From an uncultured Clostridia bacterium (GTDB taxonomy: Bacteria > Bacillota > Clostridia > Christensenellales > QALW01), in contig CAKSKV010000001.1 in NCBI GenBank assembly GCA_934465535.1, forward strand, positions 167,974 through 231,973: 64,000 nt of DNA, written 5' to 3'. Both the position numbers and the translations under genes were made by a program. The notes under the pieces are model-generated. The model was not told the origin of the DNA. It searched no databases and saw only the letters and a list, made by a program, of their open reading frames with translations. Below, one piece after another: positions 25,378-55,468 of this stretch (positions are counted from its first letter, which is position 1; every line of letters begins with the position of its first letter).

Positions 25378-27117
25378 TTATTCTTCCTTCATGGGCGGGA
25401 CAAAGTTTTCTATTGCGCTGCGCAGCTTGGGGTGACGGATAACAAAATGGATAGCCGGCGCATTGCCCTTGGAAACGATAACAAACTGCTTTTCGTGAAT
25501 GAAAATCTGAAGATTGCAAAATGCAAAGGCCGAATTTTCCTTGAGTATATAATTCGGGTGTGTGTCTGCAAAAAGTTCGGTTTGCTTGAGGTGGGCGGCG
25601 TACTCCTCAAAGCTGTATGCGATATTATTTTGCGCAAACATTCCGGACAGCTCAAGCACGGGCGGTTTTTTACTGAATTCATCTGCGGTAAGAGCGGGTA
25701 TTTCGTCCGTGACGGTGTTTTTTTCCAAAACGGATAAAATGCGCTGCCTGTAAGCGGCCGCATATTTGATTATTGCCTGCTGCTGCGCCGCATCGATGCC
25801 GCGGCGCGTGAGCATGTCGGCAAGCAGCTCCGGGCTTATTGTATACAGCGGCAGCGTGGAAAGAATGGCACGCCGTGCACCTGGCTTTTTAATATCGGAA
25901 AGCAGAAAGGTGTTGAATTCGTTTTCCCGCTCACTGCGGTAGATATCCATAAGCGGATATGCATCGGCAAGCATTTCCTGAGCGCGCCTGCGGTAATATT
26001 CCAGCTCGCGCTTTGATTTGGTAAGATAGTATCTGCCGTCGGAGTGATACCCGGCAATTGCCTCCCCGGTAAGTGCGGCGGCGCCCGAAACCTTCAGAAG
26101 GTGCAGGAAAATGCCGTTCTGCGCGTTTTTGAAATAGTATGGAGAGATTTGTCCGGTCATATACATCGGAATCCAGCTTTCAAGACCCAGCATCATTTCG
26201 TCAAAAGAGCGGTCGATATTGTGTATCTGGTACAGATGCAGCCCCTTTTTCAGCATCATGGCCATGCCGAACATCCATTTTTTTGCGAAATCCTCGTTCT
26301 TGGCCATCTCCCTCATGGGCATATCGCTGTACATTATTACAGCCTCGTCGGATTTGGAAAGCACGGTGGCCTTCAGAAAATCCAACTCGCTTTCCATCAT
26401 TTTCGATATGCCGTTGTAGGTTTTGCCGGACGGCAGCTGAAAGGGCGCGGAAGAAACTTTGAGCTCGTTGAAACGGATTATGTTTATATATTCATTAAGA
26501 TCAAATTCATCAAGGCGGTTAAGAAATTTTGATATGCTTCCGTCCGCGGTGTCATGCTCCGATTGACTGAGCAGCCAGCTTTTAATCAGGGTATACCGCG
26601 GCGAAATATCTCGGATGTCATCCGGATCACAGTCTATAAGCTCGGCCACGGCGGAAATTTCGGGCTGCGTCTGCATCTCTCTTGCAGTAAAGGCGGCAAT
26701 GGCGGAGGCGAACTGTTCGCAATCGCCGGGGTTTCTTGAGCCGCTGCGAATTCGGAAAATTGCGGAAGGGTCGTAGTTGGTATACTGACACAGGCGCGTA
26801 AGATTTATATTAAGCGCCGTAATGAGCATGTTGAAGTTTTTGCGCAAGCTCTCTCTGTCGGCGGAGATAAAATCCTCGCAGTCAATAAAGGCTTGCTTCA
26901 CGGAGGCTGCCGTTATGCCTTGTATTTCTTTTTTTGCCGCAATTTCGGCAATGGCGGAGCATAATTCCTCAAAGGCGCTGCTGTCCGATTCGGGAATACG
27001 CTCGCAGTTTCTGTATCGGCTGAGGGTGGCTTGGGAAATGCCGGAGAGCGTACATAATTCCTTGGCCGTGCAGGAGGTTTGAGAGATATATGCGTTTAGC
27101 TGCTCGTTGAATTTCAT
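25378..27117 (-). CDS. XRE-family HTH domain protein with large uncharacterised C-terminal region
   Basis: N-terminal HTH (ELCTLSGISQATLSRY); 579 aa. Confidence 0.6.
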   Translation of the reverse strand: MKFNEQLNAYISQTSCTAKELCTLSGISQATLSRYRNCERIPESDSSAFEELCSAIAEIAAKKEIQGITAASVKQAFIDCEDFISADRESLRKNFNMLITALNINLTRLCQYTNYDPSAIFRIRSGSRNPGDCEQFASAIAAFTAREMQTQPEISAVAELIDCDPDDIRDISPRYTLIKSWLLSQSEHDTADGSISKFLNRLDEFDLNEYINIIRFNELKVSSAPFQLPSGKTYNGISKMMESELDFLKATVLSKSDEAVIMYSDMPMREMAKNEDFAKKWMFGMAMMLKKGLHLYQIHNIDRSFDEMMLGLESWIPMYMTGQISPYYFKNAQNGIFLHLLKVSGAAALTGEAIAGYHSDGRYYLTKSKRELEYYRRRAQEMLADAYPLMDIYRSERENEFNTFLLSDIKKPGARRAILSTLPLYTISPELLADMLTRRGIDAAQQQAIIKYAAAYRQRILSVLEKNTVTDEIPALTADEFSKKPPVLELSGMFAQNNIAYSFEEYAAHLKQTELFADTHPNYILKENSAFAFCNLQIFIHEKQFVIVSKGNAPAIHFVIRHPKLRSAIENFVPPMKEE

Positions 27118-30910: not shown

Positions 30911-31163
30911 TTCTTGAAGGCCGTACGCATTATTGCTTATTCGGAAGTGTATGCTTTTGATGAGCATGGGCGTACGGTTTTCATATAATGCATATATGAT
31001 GACCGAAATGAAGCTTGCGCCTGCTTATGTGTCGGATGCAGCATAAAGTGCCGGCGGCGTGAAAACAGAGAATGTGCAGGCGTGTAAAAGAAAGAGACGG
31101 ACAAACTTAAGACCGTACTTTTCGGGTTTTAATGCCGAAATTCGGCAAAATTCGATTACATTC

Positions 31164-31192
31164 TTTACAACGGCACCGTTAGGTGGTATACT
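31164..31192 (+). promoter_or_regulatory. candidate sigma-A promoter for SPFH/Zn-ribbon/TPM cluster (TTTACA-17-TGgTATACT), ~125-nt leader
   Basis: sequence match only. Confidence 0.45.
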
Positions 31193-31319
31193 GAAACGGA
31201 TAACAATTCCGAAGCCTTACCCGATGGGCGCGGGCGAACATACCCGCTGCTGCAAGTCGTCATCCGGCAAAGGCGATATCGGAATTTATAAAATCAAATA
31301 TTTTTCGGAGGTTGCGGTT

Positions 31320-32681
31320 ATGGGTCTTATTAAAGCAGGCATAGGCGCCTTGGGCGGAACTCTTGCGGATCAGTGGAAGGAATTCTTCTATTGTGAGGCG
31401 CTTCCCAAAGAGGTGCTTGTTACCAAGGGACAGAAGGTTATAGGAAACCGTTCTTCAAACACCAAGGGCAGCGATAATATAATTACAAACGGTTCGGGAA
31501 TTGCGGTGGCGGACGGCCAGTGCATGATGATCGTGGAGCAGGGCAAGGTGGTAGAGGTATGCGCCGAGCCCGGTGAATTTACATACGATTCCTCCACGGA
31601 GCCCAGCATTTTTTCCGGCAGCCTCGGTCAAAGCATAAAGGAAACCTTCAAAACCATAGGCAAGCGTTTTACATACGGCGGGGACACGGGCAAGGATCAG
31701 CGGGTATACTACATAAACACCAAGGAGATAATGGAAAACCGTTTCGGAACGGCAAACCCCGTGCCTTTCAGGGTTGTTGATTCCAAAATCGGGCTGGACA
31801 TCGATGTGGCCATACGCTGTTCCGGCGTTTATTCCTACCGCATTGAGGACCCGATTCTGTTTTATACAAATGTATGCGGTAATGTAAGCAAGGAATTTAC
31901 AAGAGACGAGATAGACACTCAGCTCAAGCAGGAGTTTATAAGCGCGCTTCAGCCTGCCTTCGGTCAGCTTTCGCAGATGGAGCTGCGCCCCAACCAGATA
32001 GTGCTGCATAATACCGATCTGGAAAATGCCATGAATAAAACGCTGTCCGAAAAATGGGGAGAGCTGCGCGGATTAAAGGTGGTAAGCATTGCAATGGGTT
32101 CCGTAACGCTGCCCGAGGAGGATGCGGAGCTGATAAAGCAGGCGCAGAGGACCGCTATCATGCGCGATCCCAACATGGCGGCGGCCACCCTTGTGGGCGC
32201 GCAGGCCGATGCAATGAAGGCGGCGGCTTCAAACGAAAACGGCGCAATGACAGGCTTTATGGGAATGGGAATGGCGATGAACGCAGGCGGCGGCAACGCG
32301 CAGAATCTTTTTGCAATGGGACAGAGCCAAAATGCTGCGTCCGACAGCTGGAAATGCTCCTGCGGAAAAACCGTAAGCGGCAATTTTTGCCCCAACTGCG
32401 GTGCGAAGAAGCCGGAGGCGGTTAAAAAGGAAGGCTGGAAGTGCTCCTGCGGTGCCGAGGCTTACGGAAAATTCTGCCCCGAGTGCGGCGCGAAACGCCC
32501 GGAAAGCGGGACATGGACCTGCTCCTGCGGCGCGATAAATAAGGGAAAATTCTGTTCGGAATGCGGTGCTAAAAAGCCCGAAGCAGAAGCAAAACGCCGC
32601 TGCGGCAAATGCGGCTGGGAGCAGGAGGATATGACCAAAACTCCACGCTTCTGCCCTGAGTGCGGCGCACCCCTGGAGTAA
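31320..32681 (+). CDS. SPFH/band-7 family protein (YdjI-like) with four C-terminal zinc-ribbon repeats
   Basis: N-terminal MGLIKAGIGALGG band_7_1-like domain; C-terminal 4x W[KT]CSCG...FCxECGAK[KR]PE; ORF-track start 31059 rejected. Confidence 0.65.
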   Translation: MGLIKAGIGALGGTLADQWKEFFYCEALPKEVLVTKGQKVIGNRSSNTKGSDNIITNGSGIAVADGQCMMIVEQGKVVEVCAEPGEFTYDSSTEPSIFSGSLGQSIKETFKTIGKRFTYGGDTGKDQRVYYINTKEIMENRFGTANPVPFRVVDSKIGLDIDVAIRCSGVYSYRIEDPILFYTNVCGNVSKEFTRDEIDTQLKQEFISALQPAFGQLSQMELRPNQIVLHNTDLENAMNKTLSEKWGELRGLKVVSIAMGSVTLPEEDAELIKQAQRTAIMRDPNMAAATLVGAQADAMKAAASNENGAMTGFMGMGMAMNAGGGNAQNLFAMGQSQNAASDSWKCSCGKTVSGNFCPNCGAKKPEAVKKEGWKCSCGAEAYGKFCPECGAKRPESGTWTCSCGAINKGKFCSECGAKKPEAEAKRRCGKCGWEQEDMTKTPRFCPECGAPLE

Positions 32682-32757
32682 GCTTTTTTAGATGCATTTA
32701 TTATAAGCCCGGGTATCAGGCATGCCCGGGCGATCTGCTTGTTAAGGAGGATGAGCT

Positions 32758-33843
32758 TTGACTGTATTACAGGAATATAAATGCCCGTGCTGCGGCGGGG
32801 CGATAGAGTTTGACAGCTCTGTTCAGAAAATGAAGTGCCCGTATTGCGATACGGAATTTGAGATGGAAACCCTTAAAAGCTATGACGAGGAGCTTAAAAG
32901 CGAAAAGGGCGACGATATGCGCTGGGAGGCTCCGGGCAGCGGTCAGTGGAATATCGACGAGGAGACGGGACTGCGCTCATATGTATGCAAGTCCTGCGGA
33001 GGCGAGATAATCACCGACGCAAACACGGTGGCAACATCCTGCCCGTTTTGCGACAACCCCGTGGTGCTGATGCAGCAGGTGGCGGGTACGCTGCGCCCGG
33101 ATTATGTTATTCCCTTCAAGCTGGATAAAAAGGCAGCTAAAGAGGGGTTGGCGCGGCACCTTACCGGCAAGCGGCTGTTGCCGAAGGTGTTCAAGGATCA
33201 GAACCATATTGATGAGATAAAAGGCGTATATGTGCCGTTTTGGCTTTTTGATACAAATGCCGATGCCAATGTGCGCTACCGTGCAACAAAGGTGCGTTCA
33301 TGGAGCAGCTCAGATTACGATTATACCGAAACAAGCCATTTTATGGTGCTGCGGGGCGGCAATATAGCCTTTGAGCATGTGCCGGTGGACGGATCGGTAA
33401 AAATGCCGGACGATCTTATGGAATCCATAGAGCCGTATGATTTTTCGGAGGCGGTGGATTTCCAAACGGCATACCTTGCAGGATATCTTGCGGATAAATA
33501 TGATGTTTCTGCGCAGGACAGCGAGGAAAGAGCCAACAAACGCGTAAAAACCTCTACGGAGGAGGCGTTTGCAGGGACGGTCAACGGCTATACAACAGTG
33601 AATGTTGAGCAGAGCAATGTACATTTGAGCGACGGCAGCACCAAATATGCGCTGTATCCGGTGTGGCTGCTGAACACCACATGGAACGGACAAAAATATG
33701 TTTTTGCAATGAACGGTCAGACCGGGCGCTTTGTGGGCGATTTGCCGGTGGATAAAGCGGCAGCGCGAAAATGGACGCTTGGGCTTACTGCACTGTTCGG
33801 AGTTATCACATACGGGCTTGCATGGCTTATACATCTGCTGTAA
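32758..33843 (+). CDS. zinc-ribbon membrane protein (YdjG-like)
   Basis: two CxxC...CxxC zinc ribbons, C-terminal TM helix. Confidence 0.55.
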   Translation: MTVLQEYKCPCCGGAIEFDSSVQKMKCPYCDTEFEMETLKSYDEELKSEKGDDMRWEAPGSGQWNIDEETGLRSYVCKSCGGEIITDANTVATSCPFCDNPVVLMQQVAGTLRPDYVIPFKLDKKAAKEGLARHLTGKRLLPKVFKDQNHIDEIKGVYVPFWLFDTNADANVRYRATKVRSWSSSDYDYTETSHFMVLRGGNIAFEHVPVDGSVKMPDDLMESIEPYDFSEAVDFQTAYLAGYLADKYDVSAQDSEERANKRVKTSTEEAFAGTVNGYTTVNVEQSNVHLSDGSTKYALYPVWLLNTTWNGQKYVFAMNGQTGRFVGDLPVDKAAARKWTLGLTALFGVITYGLAWLIHLL

Positions 33844-33855
33844 GGGGGAAAGGGT

Positions 33856-34731
33856 ATGAAAAAAACATTTGCGGCCGTTTTGACGGCGGTGCTGCTTTGC
33901 CTTTCCTGCGTGCTTTGCTTTGCGGCAGAGGGGGAAAACGGCGGAAGTGAAAGCCTTACCCGTATAGCGGATCAAGCCGGTCTGCTTACGGAAACTCAGC
34001 GTGAGAAAATAGAGGATAAGCTTGCAGAGGTGCGGGAAAACCGCGATTTTGACATAGTGATAGTTACTGCGGAGTCCGCTCAGGGCAAATCCGAAATGGA
34101 TTATGCGGACGACTTCTTTGATTATAATGGCTACGGCTGCGGCACGGGCAGGGACGGCGTTCTGCTGCTTGTAAACATGGGCTCGCGCAAAACATGGATA
34201 TCCACGCGCGGCGAAGGCATACGGGTGTTCACCGATAAGGGCATAGAATGCATACTTTCCTCCGACGGAATAAGCAGCTATCTTTCGCGCGGGGATTATT
34301 ACGGCGCATTTGAGCACTTTATTGAGCTTTGCGACGATTTTATAGCCGCGAAAAGGTCCGGAAAGCCCTATGATATTGATAACATGCCGCCATGGAGCAC
34401 TCAGAGCGGCGACGGCATTTCGGACGGCGAATCAGAGGGGCTGTCACTTGTATGGATACCGCTTTCGTTAATTATCGGCTTTGTTATCGCCCTTTTGGTT
34501 GTGGGCGGCATGAAAAGCAAGCTCAAAAGCGTACATATGAAGGCGGCGGCCGATGATTATATCGTAAAGGACAGCATGAATATAACCCAGAGCAGCGATG
34601 TGTTCCTGTATAAAAATGTGGTTAAAAGAGCGCGCCCCAAAAACGATTCATCATCGTCCTCCCGCGGCGGAAGCAGCACCCATACCTCTTCATCTGGTTC
34701 TTCGCACGGCGGAGGCGGGGGCAGCTTCTGA
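33856..34731 (+). CDS. TPM-domain (TLP18.3/Psb32/MOLO-1 phosphatase-like) membrane protein, YdjH-like
   Basis: signal peptide, TPM domain, TM, Gly/Ser-rich tail. Confidence 0.65.
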   Translation: MKKTFAAVLTAVLLCLSCVLCFAAEGENGGSESLTRIADQAGLLTETQREKIEDKLAEVRENRDFDIVIVTAESAQGKSEMDYADDFFDYNGYGCGTGRDGVLLLVNMGSRKTWISTRGEGIRVFTDKGIECILSSDGISSYLSRGDYYGAFEHFIELCDDFIAAKRSGKPYDIDNMPPWSTQSGDGISDGESEGLSLVWIPLSLIIGFVIALLVVGGMKSKLKSVHMKAAADDYIVKDSMNITQSSDVFLYKNVVKRARPKNDSSSSSRGGSSTHTSSSGSSHGGGGGSF

Positions 34732-37522: not shown

Positions 37523-38170
37523 TTATGCTGCTTTGCTTTTGTATGATTTATAAAACATCCTGTCATTAAATATCTTTTTGATTGGCTTTGGTAAACGCGG
37601 GCATTCCTCAATAGCTAATTCCAGCACTTTCCTTGGACTGATGCGCTTGCGGTTAGCTAATGCAACCGCGTCAATTGCAGATACTTCTGTTTTGCAAGCG
37701 TCAATAAGGCGTTCCATAAACCGCGGAAAACTGTCAATATACTCTTTTTTAATGCCGTAGTTGATATCTATGTAATTGTAATTTGAAAAATTTAAGTATT
37801 TTTTCGAACCGGATGTCGAATTATTCTGCAAAACAATTATTTCCGGCTCGCCGGAATATCTCCAGTTTGAAAGCCGTCCCCGCAATTCATCACAGGCTTC
37901 CGTAAAACACTTGTCGCTGTATTGCCATTTTTGATTATCTGTTCCGGGAATCTCCGTCACATCGGAATAATTACGGCCAAAATTCGGAGAATATCCAAGC
38001 CAATAAATTGAACAGTATTTTTTTGAACGATAGTGAAGATAATTGATTTTTTTGATATATTCTTCAGCACTCGAGTCGGAGGGCTTCACCAATAACAAAA
38101 CGATTACATGATTTCCTTCAAGTAATTTTTCTTGTTTTTCAATACCCGCTATGTTATTTATCGGATACAT
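37523..38170 (-). CDS. hypothetical protein, low-GC, last gene of the TIR operon
   Basis: ORF with RBS GGAGAA before ATG 38170; AT-rich codon usage unlike neighbours; no family recognised. Confidence 0.45.
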   Translation of the reverse strand: MYPINNIAGIEKQEKLLEGNHVIVLLLVKPSDSSAEEYIKKINYLHYRSKKYCSIYWLGYSPNFGRNYSDVTEIPGTDNQKWQYSDKCFTEACDELRGRLSNWRYSGEPEIIVLQNNSTSGSKKYLNFSNYNYIDINYGIKKEYIDSFPRFMERLIDACKTEVSAIDAVALANRKRISPRKVLELAIEECPRLPKPIKKIFNDRMFYKSYKSKAA

Positions 38171-38269
38171 CTGATTCTCCTTTTTTCCACACAAATTTAC
38201 TTAATACTTTTTGCAATTTATAGGTATGTCCAGATGACAAATAAGGGCAATAGCCTAAAAGTATTTGCT

Positions 38270-41074
38270 TTATTCATTTTTCATAGAGTCAAGATCAATC
38301 CATAAGGCGGGACGAACACCGCAACCGTCACTGGTGACAAATCCGTTACTTTTGTAACAGAGGCCACCGGAAGAGGACATGACAAAAGCAGCGTAGTAAG
38401 GGCCGGTGAGCGACCGCAGCCACCACGCATCAGCACCACTACCTGCTGCGTGTGCTTTTGCGTAAGCTGTAAAGGCGCATTTTCGTGCATGGTTATCACT
38501 GAAGTATTTTTCCACTTCGTTGTAACTGAGCAGGAATACTTTATCCGTTGTTGCATTGCCGGGATCTGTGTAGTAGTTCAGAATTTTATCGACAGATACG
38601 GTGCTGCTTTGAATCAGCGCCCTTTCTTCTTCGCTGAATGCCTCATTAAGAAAAGAGTCATTCAGCCATTTGCGAAGAGAGCATTGCTCCCATGTGATGG
38701 CTTTTCTTGTTTCGTAGTATGGCTTTTCGTTGTAGGGCTGGAAGTCAAGAACTTTATTGCTTATGACAAGTATTTTATTGCTTTCCTTTGCTAAAACAAG
38801 CCATTCAATATCTTCTGCGCCGTTAGAAGTGACATTATCCTGTTCATAGGTTCCGAAAGTAAATTTATCTCCAATAGCTAAAAGCTGTTTGCATTTTGTT
38901 TTTATGTATTCACATTTTTCTTTGCTGTCTTTATAGGAAATATCTTTCAGAAGTATATAGGCGGATTCATAATCGCCCGAATCTATACATTTAATGGCTC
39001 TGTCATATTTGCTTGCGAAGATGGTGTCGATGTCGTTGATTTCTCTAAGCAGGGTGTACGCAGAATCGAAATTGCCGGAATCGAGCAGCTTCATAGCTCT
39101 GCTCCGTTTGCTGGAAGCTATGGTTTCGCTGTCGCCGATTTCTTCAAGCAGGGTGTACGCAGAATCGAAATTGCCGGAATCGAGCAGCTTCATAGCTCTG
39201 CTCCGCTTGCTGGAGGCTATGGTTTCATTGTCATCGATTTCTTTAAGCAGGGCGTATGCGGAATCGTAGTCTTCCGATTCAAGCAGCTTCATTGCGCGGT
39301 TATACTTGCTAACTTTGATATCATCATCTTTGTTTATTTCTTCAAGCAAGGAATAGGCGGAATCGTAATCTCCCGATTCCAGCAAATTCATCGCTTTGTT
39401 ATACTTCAGCTGCGGAATAATGACCATGTTCAGCACGATTACAAAGGCTATGCAGACACATAAAACGGGAGTGGCAATGGCAGCAAACTTTTTGAGCCGT
39501 TTTGCCCTTTTTGCGGCGGCAATTCGCTTTTCTTCTATCCGTTTTTGGCAGGCGTATATTTGGCTGTCGGCATCCCGCCAGCCGGGAATGGTCTTAAATA
39601 TCGCTATTGCTTCCTCGTATGAAGCGGTGTTCCCGACGGCCCTCCTTGATATTGCAGTGGTGTACAATGCGTCCTTGCGGCAGCTTTCCGCTTTTTCAAG
39701 GCATTGCGCGGCAAGTGCGTCGGCATCGCGGAAGCCGGAAATGCTTTTGAACAGCTCGGCTCCTTTAAGAAAGGCATTTTGCGCCGCAGCGGACTTCATA
39801 ATGCCGCATGCATTGTTATAAATTGCGCTCTTACGGCGCGTTTCGTTGCGCTCGTTTATAATGTCTATATATCCGCGCAGCTCCGTATTCAGCGCTTCAT
39901 CGCCAAAGCGGAGAATTTTTAAGTAGTTTTCGTTTTTGTCAAACGGCTGCGCGCAGTCGCTCAGCTGCCCGCGCTTTGGAACCTGCAGCTCCGCCATCAG
40001 CTTGCCCAGATACGCCTGTGCATTTTTCGGGTCTATATCCAGCACCTTTTCGCAGTAGGTGTCGGCGTCGGACCATTTGCCGTCCTCAAGGAAAAGAAAC
40101 GTCCGTTCCAGAAGGGGCGCAGCGCCCGTGCTGCCCGCGGCTGCCGGCGCGGCAGGCTTTGCGGCGTTTTTTTGCCCGTCGGAGGATACTATCTTTTTTA
40201 TACCCCGTATAAGGTCCTGCATAAAGCCTAACTTGCCCATATCCTGCGCCTGAAGGTGGGAGAATTCCTCGGGCAGATCGTAGGGGTCCATGTCCTTATA
40301 GGCGGGAATAAGCATTTTTTTGGCGCCGTTTTTAATAAGCGCAAGGTAACGGCTCCACTCGTTTTTTACCCATACGGCGTTGAAATATTCCGGCCTTGTG
40401 CCCAAAACCACCATGACCTTTGCGCTGTTAAGGGCGGCGAATATGTACGGCTCGTAGGCGGAGCCCAGCTTGTCCTCCAGAGTAATACGGCTGAAGAACA
40501 CCTTGAAGCCCTCCTGCGTCAGCTGGTGGTAAAGGTCGTTTGCCAGCACGCTGTCGGGCGTTCTTGCACCGCGGCTGTCGGTTTCCTTATAGCAGATAAA
40601 TACATCAAAGGGCTCCTCCTTCTGTGAAATTGCAAGAATGCCCTTTTGAATTTCATTTATTGCCTTGGCCTCGGCTTCGTAAATTTCCTTTTGGGCGGCG
40701 TCGGCGCAGCGCAGAGCGGATTTGTAGTTATCATCGTCAAAGACGGAGGTAAACTGCGCCCTGTTCACCGTGGGAATGCGCTTGCCGGTGGCCGGGTCCT
40801 CCACATATTCAATACCGTAGCGGCAAAGCACAAGGGACCAATAAGCCTCGGCGTCGGTGCTGTCCTCGGCCAGAATCTGTTCGTATATGCTCATTGCCTT
40901 GTCGTATTCGTTATTGCGGCGGAAATGATTTGCCCGGTCATACAGGTTTGCCTTTTTATCGTCGTCAAGGCGGGGAAGGGTCTGCTTGGTGCCGCAGCTG
41001 TCGCACACGGCAACTGTGTCGCCGGGATTAAATTCCAGTGTCCCGCCGCACATTTTACATTTGAAGATTGCCAT
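38270..41074 (-). CDS. type II membrane protein: N-terminal Zn-ribbon + TIR domain + TPR-like region, single TM, 5 tandem 33-aa repeats, C-terminal DUF6273-like extracellular domain
   Basis: TIR motifs DVFICYKE, VMVVLGT, WVKNEW (putative catalytic Glu); TM AIATPVLCVCIAFVIVLNMVII preceded by KRAKRLKK; ATG 41074 overlaps upstream stop (TAATG) with RBS AGGAG. Confidence 0.8.
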   Translation of the reverse strand: MAIFKCKMCGGTLEFNPGDTVAVCDSCGTKQTLPRLDDDKKANLYDRANHFRRNNEYDKAMSIYEQILAEDSTDAEAYWSLVLCRYGIEYVEDPATGKRIPTVNRAQFTSVFDDDNYKSALRCADAAQKEIYEAEAKAINEIQKGILAISQKEEPFDVFICYKETDSRGARTPDSVLANDLYHQLTQEGFKVFFSRITLEDKLGSAYEPYIFAALNSAKVMVVLGTRPEYFNAVWVKNEWSRYLALIKNGAKKMLIPAYKDMDPYDLPEEFSHLQAQDMGKLGFMQDLIRGIKKIVSSDGQKNAAKPAAPAAAGSTGAAPLLERTFLFLEDGKWSDADTYCEKVLDIDPKNAQAYLGKLMAELQVPKRGQLSDCAQPFDKNENYLKILRFGDEALNTELRGYIDIINERNETRRKSAIYNNACGIMKSAAAQNAFLKGAELFKSISGFRDADALAAQCLEKAESCRKDALYTTAISRRAVGNTASYEEAIAIFKTIPGWRDADSQIYACQKRIEEKRIAAAKRAKRLKKFAAIATPVLCVCIAFVIVLNMVIIPQLKYNKAMNLLESGDYDSAYSLLEEINKDDDIKVSKYNRAMKLLESEDYDSAYALLKEIDDNETIASSKRSRAMKLLDSGNFDSAYTLLEEIGDSETIASSKRSRAMKLLDSGNFDSAYTLLREINDIDTIFASKYDRAIKCIDSGDYESAYILLKDISYKDSKEKCEYIKTKCKQLLAIGDKFTFGTYEQDNVTSNGAEDIEWLVLAKESNKILVISNKVLDFQPYNEKPYYETRKAITWEQCSLRKWLNDSFLNEAFSEEERALIQSSTVSVDKILNYYTDPGNATTDKVFLLSYNEVEKYFSDNHARKCAFTAYAKAHAAGSGADAWWLRSLTGPYYAAFVMSSSGGLCYKSNGFVTSDGCGVRPALWIDLDSMKNE
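38845..39335. repeat. five tandem 99-bp repeats inside the TIR-protein gene (encode 33-aa repeats SGxFDSAYxLLxEIxD...)
   Basis: period-99 recurrence of AAGCAGGGTGTACGCAGAATCGAAATTGCCGGAATCGAGCAGCTTCATAGCTCTGCTCCG at 39047, 39146, 39245; two units ~95% identical. Confidence 0.7.
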
Positions 41075-41523
41075 TATACTGACTCCTTTTTGATAATATT
41101 TATCCAAGATAGCAAAGTATCTTCATAGAGAATGATTCTTGCTTTTTCGTAGCCTTTATAGTTGGAAAAATAATAAATTCGCGTCTTTTTGTAACATCTT
41201 ACATTAAAACTGCCGTGCGCTAACGCGTTTCTAATAGCGGAAAATAGGGAGGAAACCACTCCGTTTTCATCATTTGCTAAAAATACGCAATACTCGTCCG
41301 GATATGTAATTGCTTCGCATTTTCTGAAATTTGAAGGTAACTCGCTTTTTTTGCTTGGCATATAGTTGCCCTTCAAGCTTGGGGTTGCGGCCTGTAAAAG
41401 ATTGTTCTTTAGTTTGGTAAAAGAAGGAGATCTGCTGTATCCAAGCTGTTTGAAAGTTTTTCCTCTGTGGCTCTTTCCTTCAACAGGACATTCAAATAAA
41501 TAAAACTGAATGATTTTTTGCAA
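41074..41523 (-). CDS. small HEPN-like protein (Rx4H motif IRNALAHG)
   Basis: Rx4H motif typical of HEPN RNases; AT-rich; start uncertain (TTG 41523 or ATG 41361). Confidence 0.4.
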   Translation of the reverse strand: MQKIIQFYLFECPVEGKSHRGKTFKQLGYSRSPSFTKLKNNLLQAATPSLKGNYMPSKKSELPSNFRKCEAITYPDEYCVFLANDENGVVSSLFSAIRNALAHGSFNVRCYKKTRIYYFSNYKGYEKARIILYEDTLLSWINIIKKESV

Positions 41524-41579
41524 GTTTTTATTTGATATGCTTGAAGGTTCTGTGAAATTTGTGCAATACTTAGCGTTTT

Positions 41580-42278
41580 TTACTTCATCGCCTTACACTT
41601 TCCGTTTCGCTCTGCCAGAGTATCCAGCAGGCTTTGCGCCGCCTCTGTCGCGCCCTGACCGGCGTTTACGGCATTTTCAAACGCCTTGAATTCCTTTTCA
41701 AGCTCCGCCTCAATCGCGCTTAATGCCTCGCTGCTTACGGGGTCGGAATATCGCAGCGCCTCATATACCTTTTTTGCCGCCGCTTTTTCGTCCGGGTTTT
41801 TGGCTTTGGCAAGCAGCGTTTCGGCGTTTACTGTTAAAAGCTTTATAAGCTGTGTCTGCGCTTTTACCTTTTCTTCAACGGCATCGGCAGCCTTTCCCGC
41901 CCAATCGGCACGGACAACGGCCGCTGCGGTAACGGCTGCGGCAATCAGGCACACAACGGCGGCAATCCATGCGGGGCAGCCCGGAATAAGCATAAGCGCT
42001 CCGCCCAGCACCAGCATAACAATCAACCCCGCGTAGCTGACGGTTATAAGCGGCAGATTGTAAAACAGCTTTTTAAGGTTCTGTGCCTTAAAGGCAAAAT
42101 ATGCGCAGACGAGATTTCCGATAAAAGCCGCGAGAATAAATCCCCACGCAATCCAGAAACGCGCATCGTAATTGACCACATATCCCGGAATTATGGGACA
42201 AACAAGAAACACGACAGCATTAAACACTACAAGCATGATTGCCCATATCAGCGCATACGATTTGAAATTCCTTTTCAT
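41580..42278 (-). CDS. membrane protein: 4 TM helices plus C-terminal coiled coil
   Basis: hydrophobic N-terminal half, Ala/Glu/Lys-rich helical C-terminal half. Confidence 0.55.
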   Translation of the reverse strand: MKRNFKSYALIWAIMLVVFNAVVFLVCPIIPGYVVNYDARFWIAWGFILAAFIGNLVCAYFAFKAQNLKKLFYNLPLITVSYAGLIVMLVLGGALMLIPGCPAWIAAVVCLIAAAVTAAAVVRADWAGKAADAVEEKVKAQTQLIKLLTVNAETLLAKAKNPDEKAAAKKVYEALRYSDPVSSEALSAIEAELEKEFKAFENAVNAGQGATEAAQSLLDTLAERNGKCKAMK

Positions 42279-42293: not shown

Positions 42294-43436
42294 TTATAAA
42301 ATGCTTTTAAGCAGCTCTGCCTTCATGGCGGCGAATTCCTCATCGGTAATCAGCCCGGCGTTTTTCATCACCGTCAGCTTTTCCGCTTTTGCTTTGAATG
42401 TCGCCATATCATCGGCGGGTTGTGCTGCCTGCTGCGGCTGAGCCGGCTGCGCCGCTGCGCTTACGGCGTTATTTACTGCGCCGCCCACCATGCCGCTTAC
42501 TGCGCCGCCGACACCCGCCATTGTGCCAAAGCCTATTCCCATATTGGTAAACTGACCAACCGCCTCGTTCTGCGCCGCCGTCTGCGCCACATCAAAGCTG
42601 CGCTCCTGCGCGTATGTATAGCCCTCCTGCGCCCGCTTTGTGGCCTGCGCCTGAGAATCTATCACTATTTTCTGCGCCTCTGTCTGGGCGTTTATGATAT
42701 CGGTCTGCTGCTTAAGCTTGGCTTCGGCAATATCCGCATACTGGCGGAAATGCAGCTCCTTGAATTTTTCATACTGCTTCTCGCCGTCCGGCTTTACTAT
42801 GGTGGTTACAAAAAATCTTTCCAGCGCAATGCCGTAATCGGCAAAGTCCGGAATAAGAAGCTTATGCAGATTCTCGGAAAAGGCCGTCAGGTTTTCGTCA
42901 ATTTCAAAAATATTTATGGAATTTGCCCGTATGACCTGAGCGATATATGTTTTTACCCTTGTCATAAGAAAAGCACGGAAAAAACCGGTCAGCTGCTGCT
43001 GCCCCAAAAAGCTTTCCGTTCCCACAAGCTTTATAAGCAGCCTGCGGCTGTCCTGCACGCGCAGGCTCATTTCGCCCGATGCGCCTATCGAAATGGGGAA
43101 GCGGTATGTTGGGTCGATATACTGTATTTTGGAATCGGTTCCCCATTTGATAGCCATCTGCTCGGTTTTGTTTATAAAATAAACCTCGCAGTGGAATGGG
43201 GTCTTATCGCCGACGGTGCGGTTGAGCAGCTTTCCGATTTTTGGTATGTTCTGTGTTTCCAGCGTATACCTGCCCGGCCCGAACAGGTCAAGCGCCTGCC
43301 CGTTCATGAAAAATACGGCTTCCTGCGATTCATGCACGATAAGCTGTGTAAGAGTGTTGAAATCTTCGCATGGGTGCTTCCAGATGAAGGTGGAATTATC
43401 CCCCTCGTATTTGATTACATCTGCAATTTGTGCCAT
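42294..43436 (-). CDS. SPFH/band-7 (YdjI-like) protein with C-terminal SHOCT domain
   Basis: band_7_1-like core; C-terminal GLITDEEFAAMKAELL SHOCT motif; RBS GGGAGG before ATG 43436 (ORF-track extension to 43553 runs into the inverted repeat). Confidence 0.7.
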   Translation of the reverse strand: MAQIADVIKYEGDNSTFIWKHPCEDFNTLTQLIVHESQEAVFFMNGQALDLFGPGRYTLETQNIPKIGKLLNRTVGDKTPFHCEVYFINKTEQMAIKWGTDSKIQYIDPTYRFPISIGASGEMSLRVQDSRRLLIKLVGTESFLGQQQLTGFFRAFLMTRVKTYIAQVIRANSINIFEIDENLTAFSENLHKLLIPDFADYGIALERFFVTTIVKPDGEKQYEKFKELHFRQYADIAEAKLKQQTDIINAQTEAQKIVIDSQAQATKRAQEGYTYAQERSFDVAQTAAQNEAVGQFTNMGIGFGTMAGVGGAVSGMVGGAVNNAVSAAAQPAQPQQAAQPADDMATFKAKAEKLTVMKNAGLITDEEFAAMKAELLKSIL

Positions 43437-43452
43437 TAAAATACCTCCCTGT

Positions 43453-43483
43453 AACATAATCTGCATTATGTTGTAGTGCAAGT
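43453..43483. repeat. left arm of perfect 31-bp inverted repeat (AACATAATCTGCATTATGTTGTAGTGCAAGT)
   Basis: exact reverse complement of 43737..43767. Confidence 0.9.
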
Positions 43484-43670
43484 AAAAAAAGATCGCAGTG
43501 CCCGTAAAAAAATTTGTCACAAAAACCGTGCAAAATAAAAAAAGGCGCAGCAAAGCAGGCCTTTTCGAAAAAAGTTGAAAAAATAACGCGAAAAGGCTTT
43601 TTCGGCATGCCTGATTTTTGACGGCGGGGGCAGAAGCGACTGTTTTTTTTGGTCAAATATTTACAAACTA

Positions 43671-43699
43671 TTTACAAAGTGCCCCCATTATGCTATAAT
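43671..43699 (+). promoter_or_regulatory. near-consensus sigma-A promoter inside invertible segment (TTTACA-17 bp-TGcTATAAT), currently firing away from the SPFH/TIR operon
   Basis: -35 TTTACA 43671..43676, 17-bp spacer, extended -10 TGcTATAAT 43691..43699. Confidence 0.6.
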
Positions 43700-43736
43700 T
43701 AAGCATATAATGATGTTGTTTGTCATACTCGTGGGA

Positions 43737-43767
43737 ACTTGCACTACAACATAATGCAGATTATGTT
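43737..43767. repeat. right arm of perfect 31-bp inverted repeat
   Basis: exact reverse complement of 43453..43483. Confidence 0.9.
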
Positions 43768-43792: not shown

Positions 43793-44635
43793 TTATATTA
43801 TCAGATGCAGGTTCTCCATGCGGCGGCGGTGTTCTGCACCGGAGGATATAATATATATACGCGTGGTGTTTATGCTGCTGTGACCCAGAATATCGGCAAG
43901 CTTTGCAAGGTCTTTTTCGATCTCATAAAACAGCCGGGCAAACAAATGCCGCAGATTATGGGGAAACACCTTTTTCGGGCTGACATTTGCCCGCGTACAC
44001 AGCGCTTTCATCTCCCGCCAGATATTTGTTCGGTTAAGCGGCTTTCCCAAACGCGTTATAAATATCATACCCTCCTTTATTCCTTTTTTTGCAGCATACT
44101 TAAGCAGCTTTTGCCGCAGCTCCTTCACAAGGAAAACCGAGCGCGTTTTTCCCTTGCAGCTAACAAGCGCTTCGCCGCGTTTTGCCGCATCCACCGTTAT
44201 ATGCTGCAGCTCGCTTACCCGTATGCCCGTGCTGCACAGCGTTTGCAATACAAGGCAGAGCCGTTTGTTGCCGGAATGCCGCGCCGCTTCGCACAGCCGC
44301 GTGTATTCGGCCTTTGTAAGTTCCTTTTCCTCGGAACAGAACGCTTGCTGCTGAAGTGATACCGATTTTACCTTCAGGTCATGCCAGCCCATAAGGGAAA
44401 ACAGAACATTCAGGCTTGTGAGCATTGAATTAACACTGCGCACGGAATAGTTATCCCGCAGCCGCTTTTTGTACGCAATAACAGTTTCCTTGGTAACGGG
44501 GCCGCTTTGGGCATAGCGCGAAAACGCCGTTGCATCGCGGATATATTTTTCCACCGTTGCGCCGCTTCGCTCCTCAAAGATAAGATGCTTTTTGAATCCG
44601 GCAATGGCATTTGCCGTTATAAACCGCTCTTTCAT
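43793..44635 (-). CDS. tyrosine site-specific recombinase (phage integrase/XerD-like fold)
   Basis: HxxR (HNLRH) and C-terminal LGHSSINTTRIY catalytic Tyr motif. Confidence 0.85.
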   Translation of the reverse strand: MKERFITANAIAGFKKHLIFEERSGATVEKYIRDATAFSRYAQSGPVTKETVIAYKKRLRDNYSVRSVNSMLTSLNVLFSLMGWHDLKVKSVSLQQQAFCSEEKELTKAEYTRLCEAARHSGNKRLCLVLQTLCSTGIRVSELQHITVDAAKRGEALVSCKGKTRSVFLVKELRQKLLKYAAKKGIKEGMIFITRLGKPLNRTNIWREMKALCTRANVSPKKVFPHNLRHLFARLFYEIEKDLAKLADILGHSSINTTRIYIISSGAEHRRRMENLHLII

Positions 44636-52618: not shown

Positions 52619-55468
52619 TTATATCGCGGCCGGGGCATTGCCCCGGCCTTTTGTGCGCCGGCAAATGCCGTGTTGTTCCTGTATTTCGACTGTATTGTTC
52701 AGCTCGTGTATTGCCGCCTGATACGAGCGCAGGGATTTCGTCTCCTGCTCATTCTGCGCTATCTGCATGAAGAGGTTGGAAAGCTCCTTGCGCGGGTTGA
52801 ACTGGTTCTCATCGCTGCGCAGCTCAAGGTGAATGTCCGGCGAAGATGTCGGGGTTTTGTTATCAAAGCTCTTGAACTGATCGCTGCCGAAGGCCACATA
52901 CACATTGGCGTTGTCGTATTTGCCCTCTACAATGTAACCGTCATAGCCCAGCACCTTGCGCACGGCATCCATAACATTTCCGCTGCCTGCGCCCGCATTG
53001 GCTATCTCCGCCAATATCTCGCTGTCGCTTTCGCTGGTGCTCATAATCATGTTTACGGTATCGGAAAGCGCCCTGTTATACCACGCTTTGGAGGGGTAGC
53101 CCATACCGCCCTGCGAATCGTAATTCAGTATTACATCGTCGCCGGTGGGGTCTAATGCCTTAAGCAGCCGTTTTACCTCCGGCGCGGAAAGCGTTACCTC
53201 GCTGTCGCTCAGCGGATTTGTAATGTTCAGATAGCCTTCAAGCAGCTGTCCGCCCTTTTTCTGATAGCCCTCCGCCATGTCCTTGTAGTCCGTGAAATAA
53301 AAGCCCTGTCCCTCGGAGCTGCCGTGCTGGCTCATGAAGTCGGCGGAGAACACATTGAATACGGCAGAGCTGCCGTGGTATACGGTTTTCAGCCGTCCGT
53401 CCTTGTCCCGCACCTGACTGTCCTTGAATTTCTCCGCCTGCGCCTTCGTCAGCTCTCTGCCCTGATTGTCCCGCAGCTCGTACAGTATATCCCGGTTGCC
53501 TTTGTCGAATGTGCCTATGTTGTCCGTCGCGGACTTGAGCTGCGTGGGGTCAAAGGCTACCCATTCAATACCGTCATGTATGCCGTCATAGCCGAGGTGC
53601 TTAAGAATATCGCTTGTCTTGATTCCGTTGTCGGCGGCATATTCGGACAGGTAATCCATAACGCGCGTCGGGGTCATCAGCTTTTGCTGCGCATGCTTTC
53701 GGTATACGCCGTCGTATGCGTCAAGGTTATGCTTAGTGGCAGCGTAAGTATTCAGCACTTCATCGGCCTGCGCTTTGGTCAATTTCATTTCAAACGGGTG
53801 CTTTATGTCCGCATAGACATCCATTCTGTTCTTGCCGTAGTCCATAAAGGCGGTCTTGCTGGAGGATATGTATATACCGTCGCCGAGCCGCATTCCCTGA
53901 TTGCTTCCGCTGCGTGCGGGGTCAAAAACAGTAAAGGTGCTGTCGGTGTAGTGGTACATCACTCGCGGCGTACCGTCGGCGTTTACCACCTTGCTTGCAC
54001 GCTTGGGATTCTTCTGCCAGTCACCGAACCAGCGCTTGAATTGCTGCGTTTGCGTAACATTTTCAAATTTTGTGTTGACAAACGAACCGGCATCGCGTAT
54101 ACTGTGAATGTAGCCATCGGTTACTGTCTTTCCACCGGGGAATTGTACCCCGGATGCATTGAACAGAGCGGTGGCGCTTTTTTTATTCAAGTAGAACAGG
54201 CGAACAGCGGTGTCGGAATCGTTAGTTATCGCGTCTGCCAAGAGTTTTGCTGCATTGGCGCGCGTATGTATGGAGGTTATGGCGTTACTGTCTATGCGCT
54301 CTCCATTCATGATGCCGTAACCCTCAATTTCAACAGCAGCAAACATAGGCTTGTTTCCGAATGACAAGTCCAATATTGCCACAATGCTGGACTGCGGCTT
54401 GGTGTTTGAAGCAATTATTGCGACAGGATTTTTCATTGCTTCTGGGATACGCTTCAGATTTGCCTCGCCGAAGTTATGATCCACTTTATTCCCCTGCAGG
54501 ACATCTTTAAGGTGCCCGGTCGCATAAGTCATGGGCAGTGCGTTCAGCCCTATTTTTTGGAACACTTCCGGTGTTGCGCCGACAATGAGTGTGTCGTATT
54601 TAGGGAATTTTCCGGCCTTGTAGTCGTCTATCTGCTGTGCAAAGGTTTTGGAATAGTCGTAGGAACGGATTTCCGACATGGTATCTTTTCCCGCGCTCTT
54701 CCTGCCTTCGTTCTCCTTTATCGCCCCCTTAAGCGCATTGTCCCACAGCTTCTGCGTTTCCTTAAGGCTGGTTTCGCTTGCCGCTATGGCGCGGGCTTCG
54801 GGGCTGGTGGCGTCAAGGTTTTCAAAGGCGGCCTTTCTGTTGGCGGAAAGCTTTTTAATAAAGCCGTCAAGCCCCGCCTTTATGCGCTGCGCAAGAGACA
54901 GGTTCTGCCGCGCCAGTTTTTCAAACACTTCACTGTTTTTCAGCATCATTTCACAGGCGGCTGCCACCATTTCTTCCTTTGCCTGTTCGCGGGTAAGCTC
55001 CTTGCCCACCTGATCTTTGTACTGCTCCTGTATGTCCTCTATGCGGTTATCTACGCTCTTTTCGCCGTACTGCTCCGTAAACCGGGACAGAACATAATCC
55101 TCAAGCAGGGAATAGGTCTGCGTGCCGGAGGCGGCTATATAGTGCGTTATTTCATGCGACGCCGTTTTCAGTATTGCACTGCCGGTTATGTCGGTAATGC
55201 TCTGCATGCCGGCATTGACGGAAACATACAGGGTATTGGTTACACCGTCGTAATGCCCGTTTTCCACTGCAAACGCGCCTGTTACATCCACGCCCGACAT
55301 AAGGGTTATGTTTATGCCGGAAACCTCGCTGACGGCCTTCAGATAGCTTACCGCGGCGGTCTGCTTGGTGGTGAGTAGAACGGATCCGGCATTGTCAAAA
55401 GCATAAGCAAGACCGGAATATATTTGAAAAATGCGTGAAACGGCATCGGAAATTTCGGCATTAAACAA
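52619..55468 (-). CDS. large orphan protein: HExxH zincin-like region plus two tandem ADP-ribosyltransferase-like modules (resembles phage/ICE polyvalent proteins)
   Basis: SHEITHY; two repeats of YH[YG]xxxxFxVF...G[IF]Y[IF][ST] with H-G-S in the second. Confidence 0.5.
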   Translation of the reverse strand: MFNAEISDAVSRIFQIYSGLAYAFDNAGSVLLTTKQTAAVSYLKAVSEVSGINITLMSGVDVTGAFAVENGHYDGVTNTLYVSVNAGMQSITDITGSAILKTASHEITHYIAASGTQTYSLLEDYVLSRFTEQYGEKSVDNRIEDIQEQYKDQVGKELTREQAKEEMVAAACEMMLKNSEVFEKLARQNLSLAQRIKAGLDGFIKKLSANRKAAFENLDATSPEARAIAASETSLKETQKLWDNALKGAIKENEGRKSAGKDTMSEIRSYDYSKTFAQQIDDYKAGKFPKYDTLIVGATPEVFQKIGLNALPMTYATGHLKDVLQGNKVDHNFGEANLKRIPEAMKNPVAIIASNTKPQSSIVAILDLSFGNKPMFAAVEIEGYGIMNGERIDSNAITSIHTRANAAKLLADAITNDSDTAVRLFYLNKKSATALFNASGVQFPGGKTVTDGYIHSIRDAGSFVNTKFENVTQTQQFKRWFGDWQKNPKRASKVVNADGTPRVMYHYTDSTFTVFDPARSGSNQGMRLGDGIYISSSKTAFMDYGKNRMDVYADIKHPFEMKLTKAQADEVLNTYAATKHNLDAYDGVYRKHAQQKLMTPTRVMDYLSEYAADNGIKTSDILKHLGYDGIHDGIEWVAFDPTQLKSATDNIGTFDKGNRDILYELRDNQGRELTKAQAEKFKDSQVRDKDGRLKTVYHGSSAVFNVFSADFMSQHGSSEGQGFYFTDYKDMAEGYQKKGGQLLEGYLNITNPLSDSEVTLSAPEVKRLLKALDPTGDDVILNYDSQGGMGYPSKAWYNRALSDTVNMIMSTSESDSEILAEIANAGAGSGNVMDAVRKVLGYDGYIVEGKYDNANVYVAFGSDQFKSFDNKTPTSSPDIHLELRSDENQFNPRKELSNLFMQIAQNEQETKSLRSYQAAIHELNNTVEIQEQHGICRRTKGRGNAPAAI
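52628..52653 (+). terminator. rho-independent terminator after recN (GGCCGGGG-cattg-CCCCGGCC-TTTTG), possibly bidirectional
   Basis: 8-bp GC stem plus T-run. Confidence 0.7.

Follow-up and report, generated by a model that had tools for sequence, protein, structure and literature searches.

A predicted single-pass TIR protein with a lectin-type ectodomain and its operon in an uncultured Clostridia bacterium

The receptor gene and its predicted topology

The window analysed here is a stretch of 64,000 nt from an uncultured Clostridia bacterium (assembly GCA_934465535.1, contig CAKSKV010000001.1), and this report concerns the TIR-domain gene at 38270-41074 of the window and the operon of which it is the last member. 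An initial annotation, made from the letters alone, had recognised this open reading frame (ORF) as coding for a membrane-anchored TIR protein. The ORF is real and its product has 934 aa, but it lies on the minus strand, with an ATG at 41074 and a stop codon at 38270-38272. A homology search retrieved more than 8,000 proteins sharing its architecture. We refer to the product as the receptor and to its first 300 residues (zinc ribbon, TPR and TIR) as the head. Its parts are as follows.

38270-41074 (-): receptor gene, 934 aa, coding for zinc ribbon, TPR, TIR, linker, transmembrane (TM) helix, stalk repeats and DUF6273 (C-type lectin); from ORF, translation and Pfam
40994-41059 (-): zinc ribbon C6/C9/C24/C27 (CKMCGG...CDSC); the four cysteines are invariant in 54 family representatives
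40235-40603 (-): TIR_2 domain, residues 158-280, with the codon of E239 (40358-40360) inside WVKNEW (40355-40372); Pfam, above the gathering score
39488-40174 (-): predicted cytoplasmic Ala/Pro linker and TPR-like helical region, with KRAKRLKK at its end; conserved less than the head
39416-39487 (-): single TM helix FAAIATPVLCVCIAFVIVLNMVII, residues 530-553; Kyte-Doolittle 2.8
38912-39406 (-): predicted extracellular stalk of five 33-aa helical (TPR_19-like) repeats; copy number differs among homologues
38294-38779 (-): DUF6273 domain, of C-type-lectin fold and targeted by diversity-generating retroelements (DGRs); Pfam E=3e-28, fold and role from the literature
38297-38434 (-): former DGR variable region (VR), residues 881-926, with the scaffold WWLRS..AA..G..VRPALWI and hypervariable positions between; from entropy and from pairing with template repeats (TRs) of orthologues

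Profile searches with Pfam back the two domains that had been proposed from the letters. TIR_2 (PF13676) was matched with E=1.9e-11 and 44.9 bits, against a cut-off of 28, and DUF6273 over residues 766-927, covering the full length of the profile. TPR profiles matched residues 44-79 and, further on, the repeat region (560-740). The zinc ribbon had been given a spacing of 17 residues, which was not borne out: C6, C9, C24 and C27 make it CxxC-14-CxxC. The five tandem repeats of 33 aa are present as annotated, at residues 557-721, and the three most alike are picked by TRF as a 99-nt period with 2.7 copies and 86% identity. As had been noted, the receptor start overlaps the upstream ORF (TAATG) and is preceded by a strong ribosome-binding site (RBS), AAGGAG, 8 nt 5' of the ATG. 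Two database results were rejected. Matches to CARF and HEPN profiles at residues 546-664 (PADLOC/NCBIfam) are artefacts of the repeats, in which no stretch is significant by itself, and the cluster returned by an exact-sequence look-up of the 934-aa protein, consisting of 40-aa Methylomonas lipoprotein-like peptides, is obviously wrong and apparently a clustering artefact.

Residues 530-553 are the sole strongly hydrophobic stretch of the receptor. Seven K/R residues lie in the 15 residues that precede this helix and two in the 15 that follow it, while the N-terminal part, 530 residues long and containing the zinc ribbon, has no signal peptide. By the positive-inside rule and the length and nature of this N-terminal part, the N-terminus is placed inside and the C-terminus outside, an order further indicated by the classical Gram-positive ectodomains that other family members bear after the TM helix. 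The order given by the initial annotation thus holds, and the receptor is predicted to be a type-II single-pass membrane protein with the TIR domain inside and the lectin outside.

A large family shares the zinc-ribbon–TPR–TIR head

The receptor TIR contains both DVFICY (βA) and WVKNEW (the W-x3-E of αC, residues 235-240). Compared with solved TIR structures by phmmer, its best match in the PDB was a vertebrate Toll-like receptor (TLR) TIR (TLR15/2, E=8.4e-5), and the bacterial TIR 7uxr and a flax L6-type TIR were matched as well. In these alignments E239 falls in the conserved/catalytic glutamate column of the TLR15/2, AbTir-type and plant L6-type TIRs. This glutamate does not vary among 18 diverse homologues or among 54 family representatives, in keeping with the conserved residue that had been picked out in WVKNEW.

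The head is nearly invariant in an alignment of 17 homologues. Across 120 homologues, the mean column entropy was 0.08 bits for the TIR and 0.08-0.12 bits for the head, and the head of the window receptor is 97-98% identical to that of close relatives. When the window gene was compared with eight homologues, 36-48% of the head codons differed only synonymously and 11-20% non-synonymously, against 37-55% non-synonymous differences in the linker. The head is evidently under very strong purifying selection, as judged from these codon patterns, rather than recently transferred.

At E<=1e-30, the 300-residue head matched 4066 representatives of clusters at 50% identity. Among the top 150 representatives listed, it was N-terminal in every one (150/150), in proteins of 467 to 3073 aa; in 133 of them the head is followed by a TM-like segment (past residue 300), and 34 contain one to four DUF6273-like domains. 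TIR_2 was found in all 54 of the TM-bearing members without DUF6273 that were scanned. Their C-terminal parts carry BspA-type leucine-rich repeats (LRR_5, n=10, best E=3e-105), LRR_8 (n=4), RCC1 (n=5), and also PASTA, Fn3-like, Flg_new and RHS domains, several of which are classical extracellular domains of Gram-positive bacteria. By these matches, the receptor belongs to a large Clostridial family with apparently swappable ectodomains.

A paralogue lacking the TM helix was also seen in the related locus L002 (1900-5445). It has 861 aa and the order zinc ribbon, TPR, TIR, RCC1 repeats and C-terminal zinc ribbon. It is followed by a 315-aa SIR2_2/AbiH-like gene, a Thoeris-like pairing that stands just 5' of the SPFH, four-TM and receptor genes treated below.

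The lectin domain is a DGR target in orthologues

DUF6273 is a domain of C-type-lectin fold that serves as a DGR target, with the VR at its C-terminus (PMC10743442, PMC11792537, bioRxiv 10.1101/2024.10.15.618418). The initial annotation had presented it as a domain of surface proteins; its presence is confirmed, and beyond that it is the domain on which DGRs act. In the 17-homologue alignment, the C-terminal ~45 residues alternate between invariant scaffold residues and highly variable positions. The entropy of residues 881-920 was 1.73 bits in the set of 120 homologues that gave 0.08 bits for the TIR, and the invariant residues within the VR are W884, W885, L886, R887, S888, G903, R921, P922, W925 and I926.

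In five related loci (L005, L017, L019, L025 and L036), ~125 nt from the 3' end of the receptor gene recur ~700 nt downstream of the VR as the TR. Mismatches between VR and TR sit at TR adenines in 18/21 cases in L005, 16/17 in L017, 18/20 in L019, 21/21 in L025 and 24/26 in L036. Restriction of the mismatches almost entirely to TR adenines is the defining signature of a DGR and marks these orthologues as DGR-targeted. In L019, the ORF lying between VR and TR and the one beyond matched bAvd (E=4e-9) and the RVT_1 reverse transcriptase (RT; E=2.8e-20). Avd and/or RT were detected downstream in 9 of the 48 loci with at least 1.5 kb of sequence beyond the receptor gene, and several more keep fragments only. 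From the adenine pattern and these genes, the lectin VR of the orthologues is evidently rewritten from the TR by the adjacent Avd/RT cassette.

Some of the loci L005, L022, L041, L051 and L053 have Avd and TR without a detectable RT. The TR is truncated in L022, L051 retains a 3' fragment of the RT only, and L053 a fragment of Avd only. Partial cassettes of this kind indicate what appears to be recurrent decay of the DGR. In the DGR-less P0019 lineage, the VRs of 13 variants are identical, which is consistent with frozen binding sites in lineages without a DGR and speaks against ongoing VR diversification in P0019. The pair L019 and L025 gave no clean test of diversification because their differences run through the whole ectodomain.

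The window holds the scar of a deleted cassette

Two features lie 3' of the receptor gene in the window.

38169-38273 (-): remnant of the 3' end of a DGR RT, about 36 codons, with an internal stop; tblastn and blastn
37523-38170 (-): orphan ORF of 215 aa, 3' of the RT remnant, with a strong RBS; its membership in the system is doubtful

The remnant fills the ~100 nt between the receptor stop codon and the next gene. By tblastn it is 58% identical to residues 315-350 of the L019 RT (E=3.6e-6), and by blastn it aligns with the 3' ends of the RT genes in L017, L019 and L025 at 77-82% identity and with that of L051 at 74%. Searched by blastn with the VR, the 64-kb window yielded no further copy (TR), and tblastn searches with RT and Avd found neither intact gene there, the remnant alone being recovered. 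Taken together, the segment 38169-38273 is best identified as the scar of an avd-TR-RT deletion. This DGR biology was overlooked by the initial annotation, both in the orthologues and in the scar.

The tail of the window receptor ('...DLDS-MKNE') begins where its relatives stop ('...NLDS' and stop codon), which places the deletion junction at the end of the VR. The same tail is shared by P0001 and P0005, which makes the loss of the cassette ancestral to this small clade. With the cassette deleted in the window lineage, the binding site of the lectin would be frozen. The 215-aa ORF had no match in Pfam, NCBIfam or PADLOC and no homologue in 83 related loci.

Conserved partners and a variable slot in the operon

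The operon and the segment upstream of it comprise the following features.

42294-43436 (-): SPFH protein, Band_7_1 + SHOCT, 380 aa, first gene of the operon; Pfam E=1.1e-38, GGGAGG RBS
41580-42278 (-): membrane protein of 232 aa with four TM helices and a cytoplasmic helical bundle, encoded 5' of the receptor or slot gene
41074-41583 (-): HEPN-like gene of pEK499_p136 type, R-x4-H at 41215-41232; 93 homologues, start lost
43453-43767 (no strand): invertible segment, with perfect 31-nt inverted repeats (43453-83 and 43737-67) around 253 bp, next to a recombinase gene
43793-44635 (-): tyrosine recombinase (XerC/D-like, invertase-like), candidate switch enzyme; Pfam Phage_integrase E=6.7e-26, NCBIfam matches

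Partners were counted by tblastn of the window proteins against the 83 related loci. The SPFH protein was found in 58/83 and the 232-aa four-TM protein in 60/83, both immediately 5' of the receptor. These truly conserved partners had been missed by the initial annotation, which paired the receptor with the HEPN-like gene; that gene was found in 2/83 loci, though a wider HEPN theme recurs. The SPFH, four-TM and receptor genes evidently form the conserved core, of which the receptor is the last member.

The helical bundle of the four-TM protein was modelled confidently (AF2 pLDDT 79). The protein had no fold match in the PDB, and no Pfam domain was found among 120 homologues. We examined it as a possible two-TM SLATT/DUF4231 protein and rejected this assignment: the DUF4231 match (E=0.006) is below the cut-off, and it is not taken as SLATT membership because of the four TM helices with their bundle, the lack of a Pfam domain in the homologues and the lack of a fold match.

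An extra gene stands between the four-TM gene and the receptor gene in 24 of 59 loci, and the genes in this slot are mutually unrelated. They include a small ThsB-like TIR (TIR_2, 3e-20; PADLOC PDC-S66, 1e-40), HEPN proteins of the pEK499_p136 and RiboL-PSP (3e-14) types, SIR2_2/ThsA-like proteins, DUF2971 (PDC-S31, 6e-27) and DUF4365, which is argonaute (pAgo)-associated and restriction-endonuclease (REase)-like. By profile match, the slot genes thus belong to families typical of conflict systems, and the early guess at a role in defence or signalling fits the exchange of effector-type genes next to the receptor.

In the window, the slot is occupied by the HEPN-like gene, whose family has 93 members of 163-185 aa. 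The window ORF contains the RNALAH motif and matches PF18736 weakly (E=0.047, 13.9 bits against a cut-off of 26.6); the same profile is matched by the distant homologues P0511 and P0513 and by the slot genes of L005 and L054. In L084 and L085, the ancestral GTG start of this gene overlaps the TGA stop of the four-TM gene. The window has GTA instead, because the overlapping four-TM stop became TAA, and the next in-frame start, a TTG at 41523, is without an RBS. With the start codon lost and the gene uncalled in the ENA annotation, the co-translation with the receptor that had been read from the TAATG overlap is unlikely.

The closest relative of the window locus, L004, is 97% identical in the SPFH protein and 93% in the four-TM protein and differs in the slot gene, a small ThsB-like TIR (9552-9977; PDC-S66, 1e-40) instead of the HEPN-like gene. 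P0152 is a read-through fusion of the four-TM protein with a small TIR of the L004 type. In L087 (8001-13936) and L088 (1935-7870), the HEPN-like gene (163 aa) and the TIR–DUF6273 receptor gene are tandemly duplicated as a pair behind one recombinase–SPFH–four-TM set, a duplication which suggests that the two genes may form a cassette.

A predicted invertible promoter

Of the σ70-like sites in 7.5 kb, the best is within the invertible segment, at 43671-43699 on the plus strand (TTTACA-17-TATAAT, 11/12 σ70-like, with an extended -10), and the recombinase gene is 26 nt from the inverted repeats. The recombinase was found in 9 of the 83 loci, together with the repeat core ACATAAT-n4-ATTATGT. The operon is most likely transcribed from this promoter. 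With the promoter on the plus strand and the operon on the minus strand, it points away from the genes, and the switch is OFF in the window assembly; a promoter-like signal likewise faces away from the operon in L004 and towards it in L019. Phase-variable control as first proposed is thus upheld in its parts (repeats, promoter and recombinase), with the qualification that the assembly captures the OFF state. An exact scan of JGI metagenomes for flank plus inverted repeat gave no matching contigs, for which reason the inversion itself was not observed.

Distribution and chromosomal neighbourhood

A genome scan found relatives of the receptor in at least 575 species genomes, all of them Clostridia, from the families Oscillospiraceae, Lachnospiraceae, Ruminococcaceae, Christensenellaceae, Acutalibacteraceae and Anaerovoracaceae. 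The closest relative is in an Oscillospiraceae metagenome-assembled genome (CP091722.1). The head had no match in phage and plasmid collections, and only 2 real matches among the 2.9 million contigs of IMG/VR. These results speak against the head as a gene of mobile elements.

Several other genes of the window were recorded. Seven kb from the operon, a second SPFH cluster (31059-34731, plus strand) encodes a 540-aa protein with Band_7_1 and a double zinc ribbon, a 361-aa zinc-ribbon protein and a 291-aa TPM-domain protein. A cluster of this type is also kept beside the TIR operon in L004, and we take the one in the window to resemble ydjG-ydjH-ydjI of B. subtilis. Between recN and hrcA-dnaK-dnaJ, a gene at 52619-55468 (minus strand) encodes a protein of 949 aa in which MuF_C and ART-PolyVal domains were recognised; ADP-ribosyltransferases of this polyvalent-protein type are typical of phages and conjugative elements. 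The ORFs at 18872-21019 (plus strand, 715 aa) and 25378-27117 (minus strand, 579 aa) had no Pfam match at E<=1e-5.

Proposed function and alternative explanations

We consider it slightly better than an even chance that this is a conflict receptor which senses surfaces, is expressed phase-variably and signals through its TIR domain. In such a system the lectin tips would bind a ligand outside the cell, for which a phage particle or some other foreign surface is the most plausible candidate, and this would cause the receptors to cluster, possibly in a membrane patch organised by the SPFH protein. The cytoplasmic TIRs would then meet and could build a composite active site around E239. Cleavage of NAD+, by depletion or through a signal derived from ADP-ribose, would engage the slot effectors or the four-TM protein, and the cell would be arrested or killed. 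Self-association and NAD+ cleavage are established for other bacterial, plant and SARM1 TIRs; for this receptor we infer the ligand, the activation by clustering, the NADase or signal chemistry and the outcome in defence. A wider proposal, which we put forward tentatively and hold to be rather doubtful, is that gut Clostridia possess a large family of outside-in immune receptors with a near-invariant TIR head, one TM helix and interchangeable ectodomains. In one branch the lectin would be somatically hypermutated by a retroelement and an invertible promoter would give clonally variable expression, so that phages or foreign surfaces could be sensed before genome entry and answered by NAD+-based arrest through SPFH-organised clusters. 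Such a family would be a prokaryotic analogue of Toll-like or antigen receptors.

Several observations weigh against a role as a conflict receptor. The window locus is set among housekeeping genes, and not in a defence island or mobile element, and PADLOC and NCBIfam searches with all genes of the operon identified no known defence system, the core genes scoring below significance. Defence proteins evolve fast, and a head as extremely conserved as this one is atypical of them. About 60% of the loci are without a slot gene, which implies that coupling to an effector is not obligatory. The window copy looks partly decayed, with its promoter OFF, the HEPN-like start lost and the DGR deleted, and DGR-diversified surface proteins of gut bacteria are usually read as adhesins.

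This last point introduces the main rival, which we judge unlikely. The receptor would be an adhesin or colonisation factor whose hypervariable lectin tip binds host or dietary glycans or other microbes; the DGR and phase variation would tune attachment or immune evasion, and the TIR, SPFH and four-TM proteins would only anchor and organise it in a membrane microdomain, with neither NAD chemistry nor immunity. The majority of DGR targets encoded by cells are binding proteins anchored in the membrane, and they are interpreted as serving adhesion; both the housekeeping setting and the atypically slow evolution of the head count for this explanation as well. So does the background that invertible promoters often drive surface structures in gut bacteria and that SPFH proteins are membrane scaffolds. 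A non-enzymatic TIR is, however, hard to square with an invariant W-x3-E of catalytic type in a head under such strong purifying selection. Slot genes for HEPN, ThsB-like TIR, SIR2/ThsA-like, DUF2971 and REase-like proteins would make no sense for an adhesin, and TM-less RCC1 paralogues beside SIR2 exist. We regard as less probable still, and quite improbable, a sensor of envelope integrity or membrane stress, in which the ectodomain would watch the cell wall or surface, the SPFH and four-TM proteins would correspond in function to the SPFH module that is linked to Psp in Bacillus, and the TIR would relay the stress. The Band_7_1 SPFH partner, the SPFH/zinc-ribbon/TPM cluster 7 kb away and the PASTA domains of some family members would suit such a sensor. 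Hypermutation by a DGR, though, implies a variable, non-self ligand and not a constant envelope cue, the effector slot points the same way, and the locus contains no Psp genes.

Whatever the family does, the window copy itself may be a silent or non-functional relic, which we think somewhat unlikely. Its promoter faces away from the operon, the HEPN-like gene has GTA in place of its GTG start, nothing but the 36-codon scar is left of Avd, TR and RT, and the residues and indels of its VR are at odds with the TRs of relatives. On the other hand, the 934-aa ORF, the SPFH gene and the four-TM gene are all intact, the head has kept its near-identity to that of close relatives, the OFF state is reversible by design, and many lineages keep a receptor without a DGR, in which the VR is stable. 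Least probable by far is a host-directed effector of the TcpB, TcpC or TirS type that would mimic or subvert eukaryotic TLR signalling. The best PDB sequence match is indeed a vertebrate TLR TIR; yet the receptor TIR is predicted to be cytoplasmic, beside a single TM helix and with neither signal peptide nor secretion signal, the gene is embedded in a conserved bacterial operon, and the organism is a commensal member of the gut Clostridia.

Relation to known systems

DGR-diversified C-type-lectin 'antigen sensors' have been described in conflict systems (Kaur et al. 2020, eLife, PMC7159879; Doré et al. 2024, PNAS, PMC10907252). As in those sensors, a C-terminal lectin VR is rewritten by an adjacent Avd/TR/RT cassette, here in orthologues, and the lectin is fused with, or linked to, domains of effector type, TIR among them; in those systems the arrangement is taken to sense invaders through a hypervariable module. 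Their core is a STAND or MoxR-vWA NTPase, they are found mainly in multicellular cyanobacteria and proteobacteria, and their sensors are mostly cytoplasmic or periplasmic. The receptor family is instead predicted to be single-pass, has SPFH and four-TM partners, is probably phase-variable and belongs to unicellular gut Clostridia, with the DGR deleted in the window; no STAND or MoxR NTPase and no vWA domain was found among the genes of the window operon, L019 and L002. The DUF6273 proteins of gut and Faecalibacterium phages (tentaclins, Mtd-like) share the Pfam domain, the C-terminal VR and the C-type-lectin fold, and the receptor is weakly similar in sequence to gut phage proteins. They are, however, receptor-binding proteins of virions, whereas the receptor is a cellular membrane protein with a predicted cytoplasmic TIR and a head absent from phage genomes.

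With Thoeris the receptor shares a TIR bearing a glutamate of catalytic type, and some related loci place ThsB-like TIR or ThsA/SIR2-like genes beside it. Against Thoeris profiles it scored 29.6 bits with ThcB4 (cut-off 220) and only E=3e-4 with the PADLOC ThsB, and no ThsA-type gene (SIR2 or Macro) was found in the window. Unlike in Thoeris, the TIR belongs to a membrane receptor of 934 aa, which would sense outside the cell. Animal Toll-like and IL-1 receptors resemble it in their single pass, variable ligand-binding ectodomain and cytoplasmic TIR, with sequence similarity to TLR15/TLR2, and some family members have leucine-rich-repeat ectodomains, as Toll-like receptors do. The order is reversed: the receptor has an N-terminal TIR (type II) and a lectin ectodomain, whereas TLRs are type I with N-terminal leucine-rich repeats and a C-terminal TIR, and the receptor TIR is probably an enzyme, unlike the adaptor scaffold of TLRs. 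We treat the likeness as an analogy only, as the evidence gives no common descent of the whole architecture. The promoter, flanked by inverted repeats beside a tyrosine recombinase and upstream of surface-related genes, is like the invertons of gut bacteria, from which it differs in its cargo, a TIR receptor operon. No description of the family was found in the literature searched, whose coverage was incomplete; queries joining DGR with TIR, SPFH or Clostridia returned STAND/VMAP papers only.

Significance

The family unites a TLR-like transmembrane layout, DGR hypermutation in orthologues, phase variation and a swappable effector slot. Compared with the known DGR-linked TIR sensors, the TLR-like membrane topology and the phase variation, both as predicted here, are unusual. 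The window illustrates a route by which such loci may decay, through deletion of the DGR and loss of an effector start codon. Should the receptor prove to be an adhesin, a highly conserved TIR would have an unexpected non-immune role. To our knowledge, the bacterial TIR systems described so far detect infection from within the cell. If the receptor is an immune receptor, surveillance of the exterior coupled to TIR signalling would exist in bacteria, and the family would offer a tractable system in which to study the activation of a TIR by a ligand bound on the other side of a membrane.

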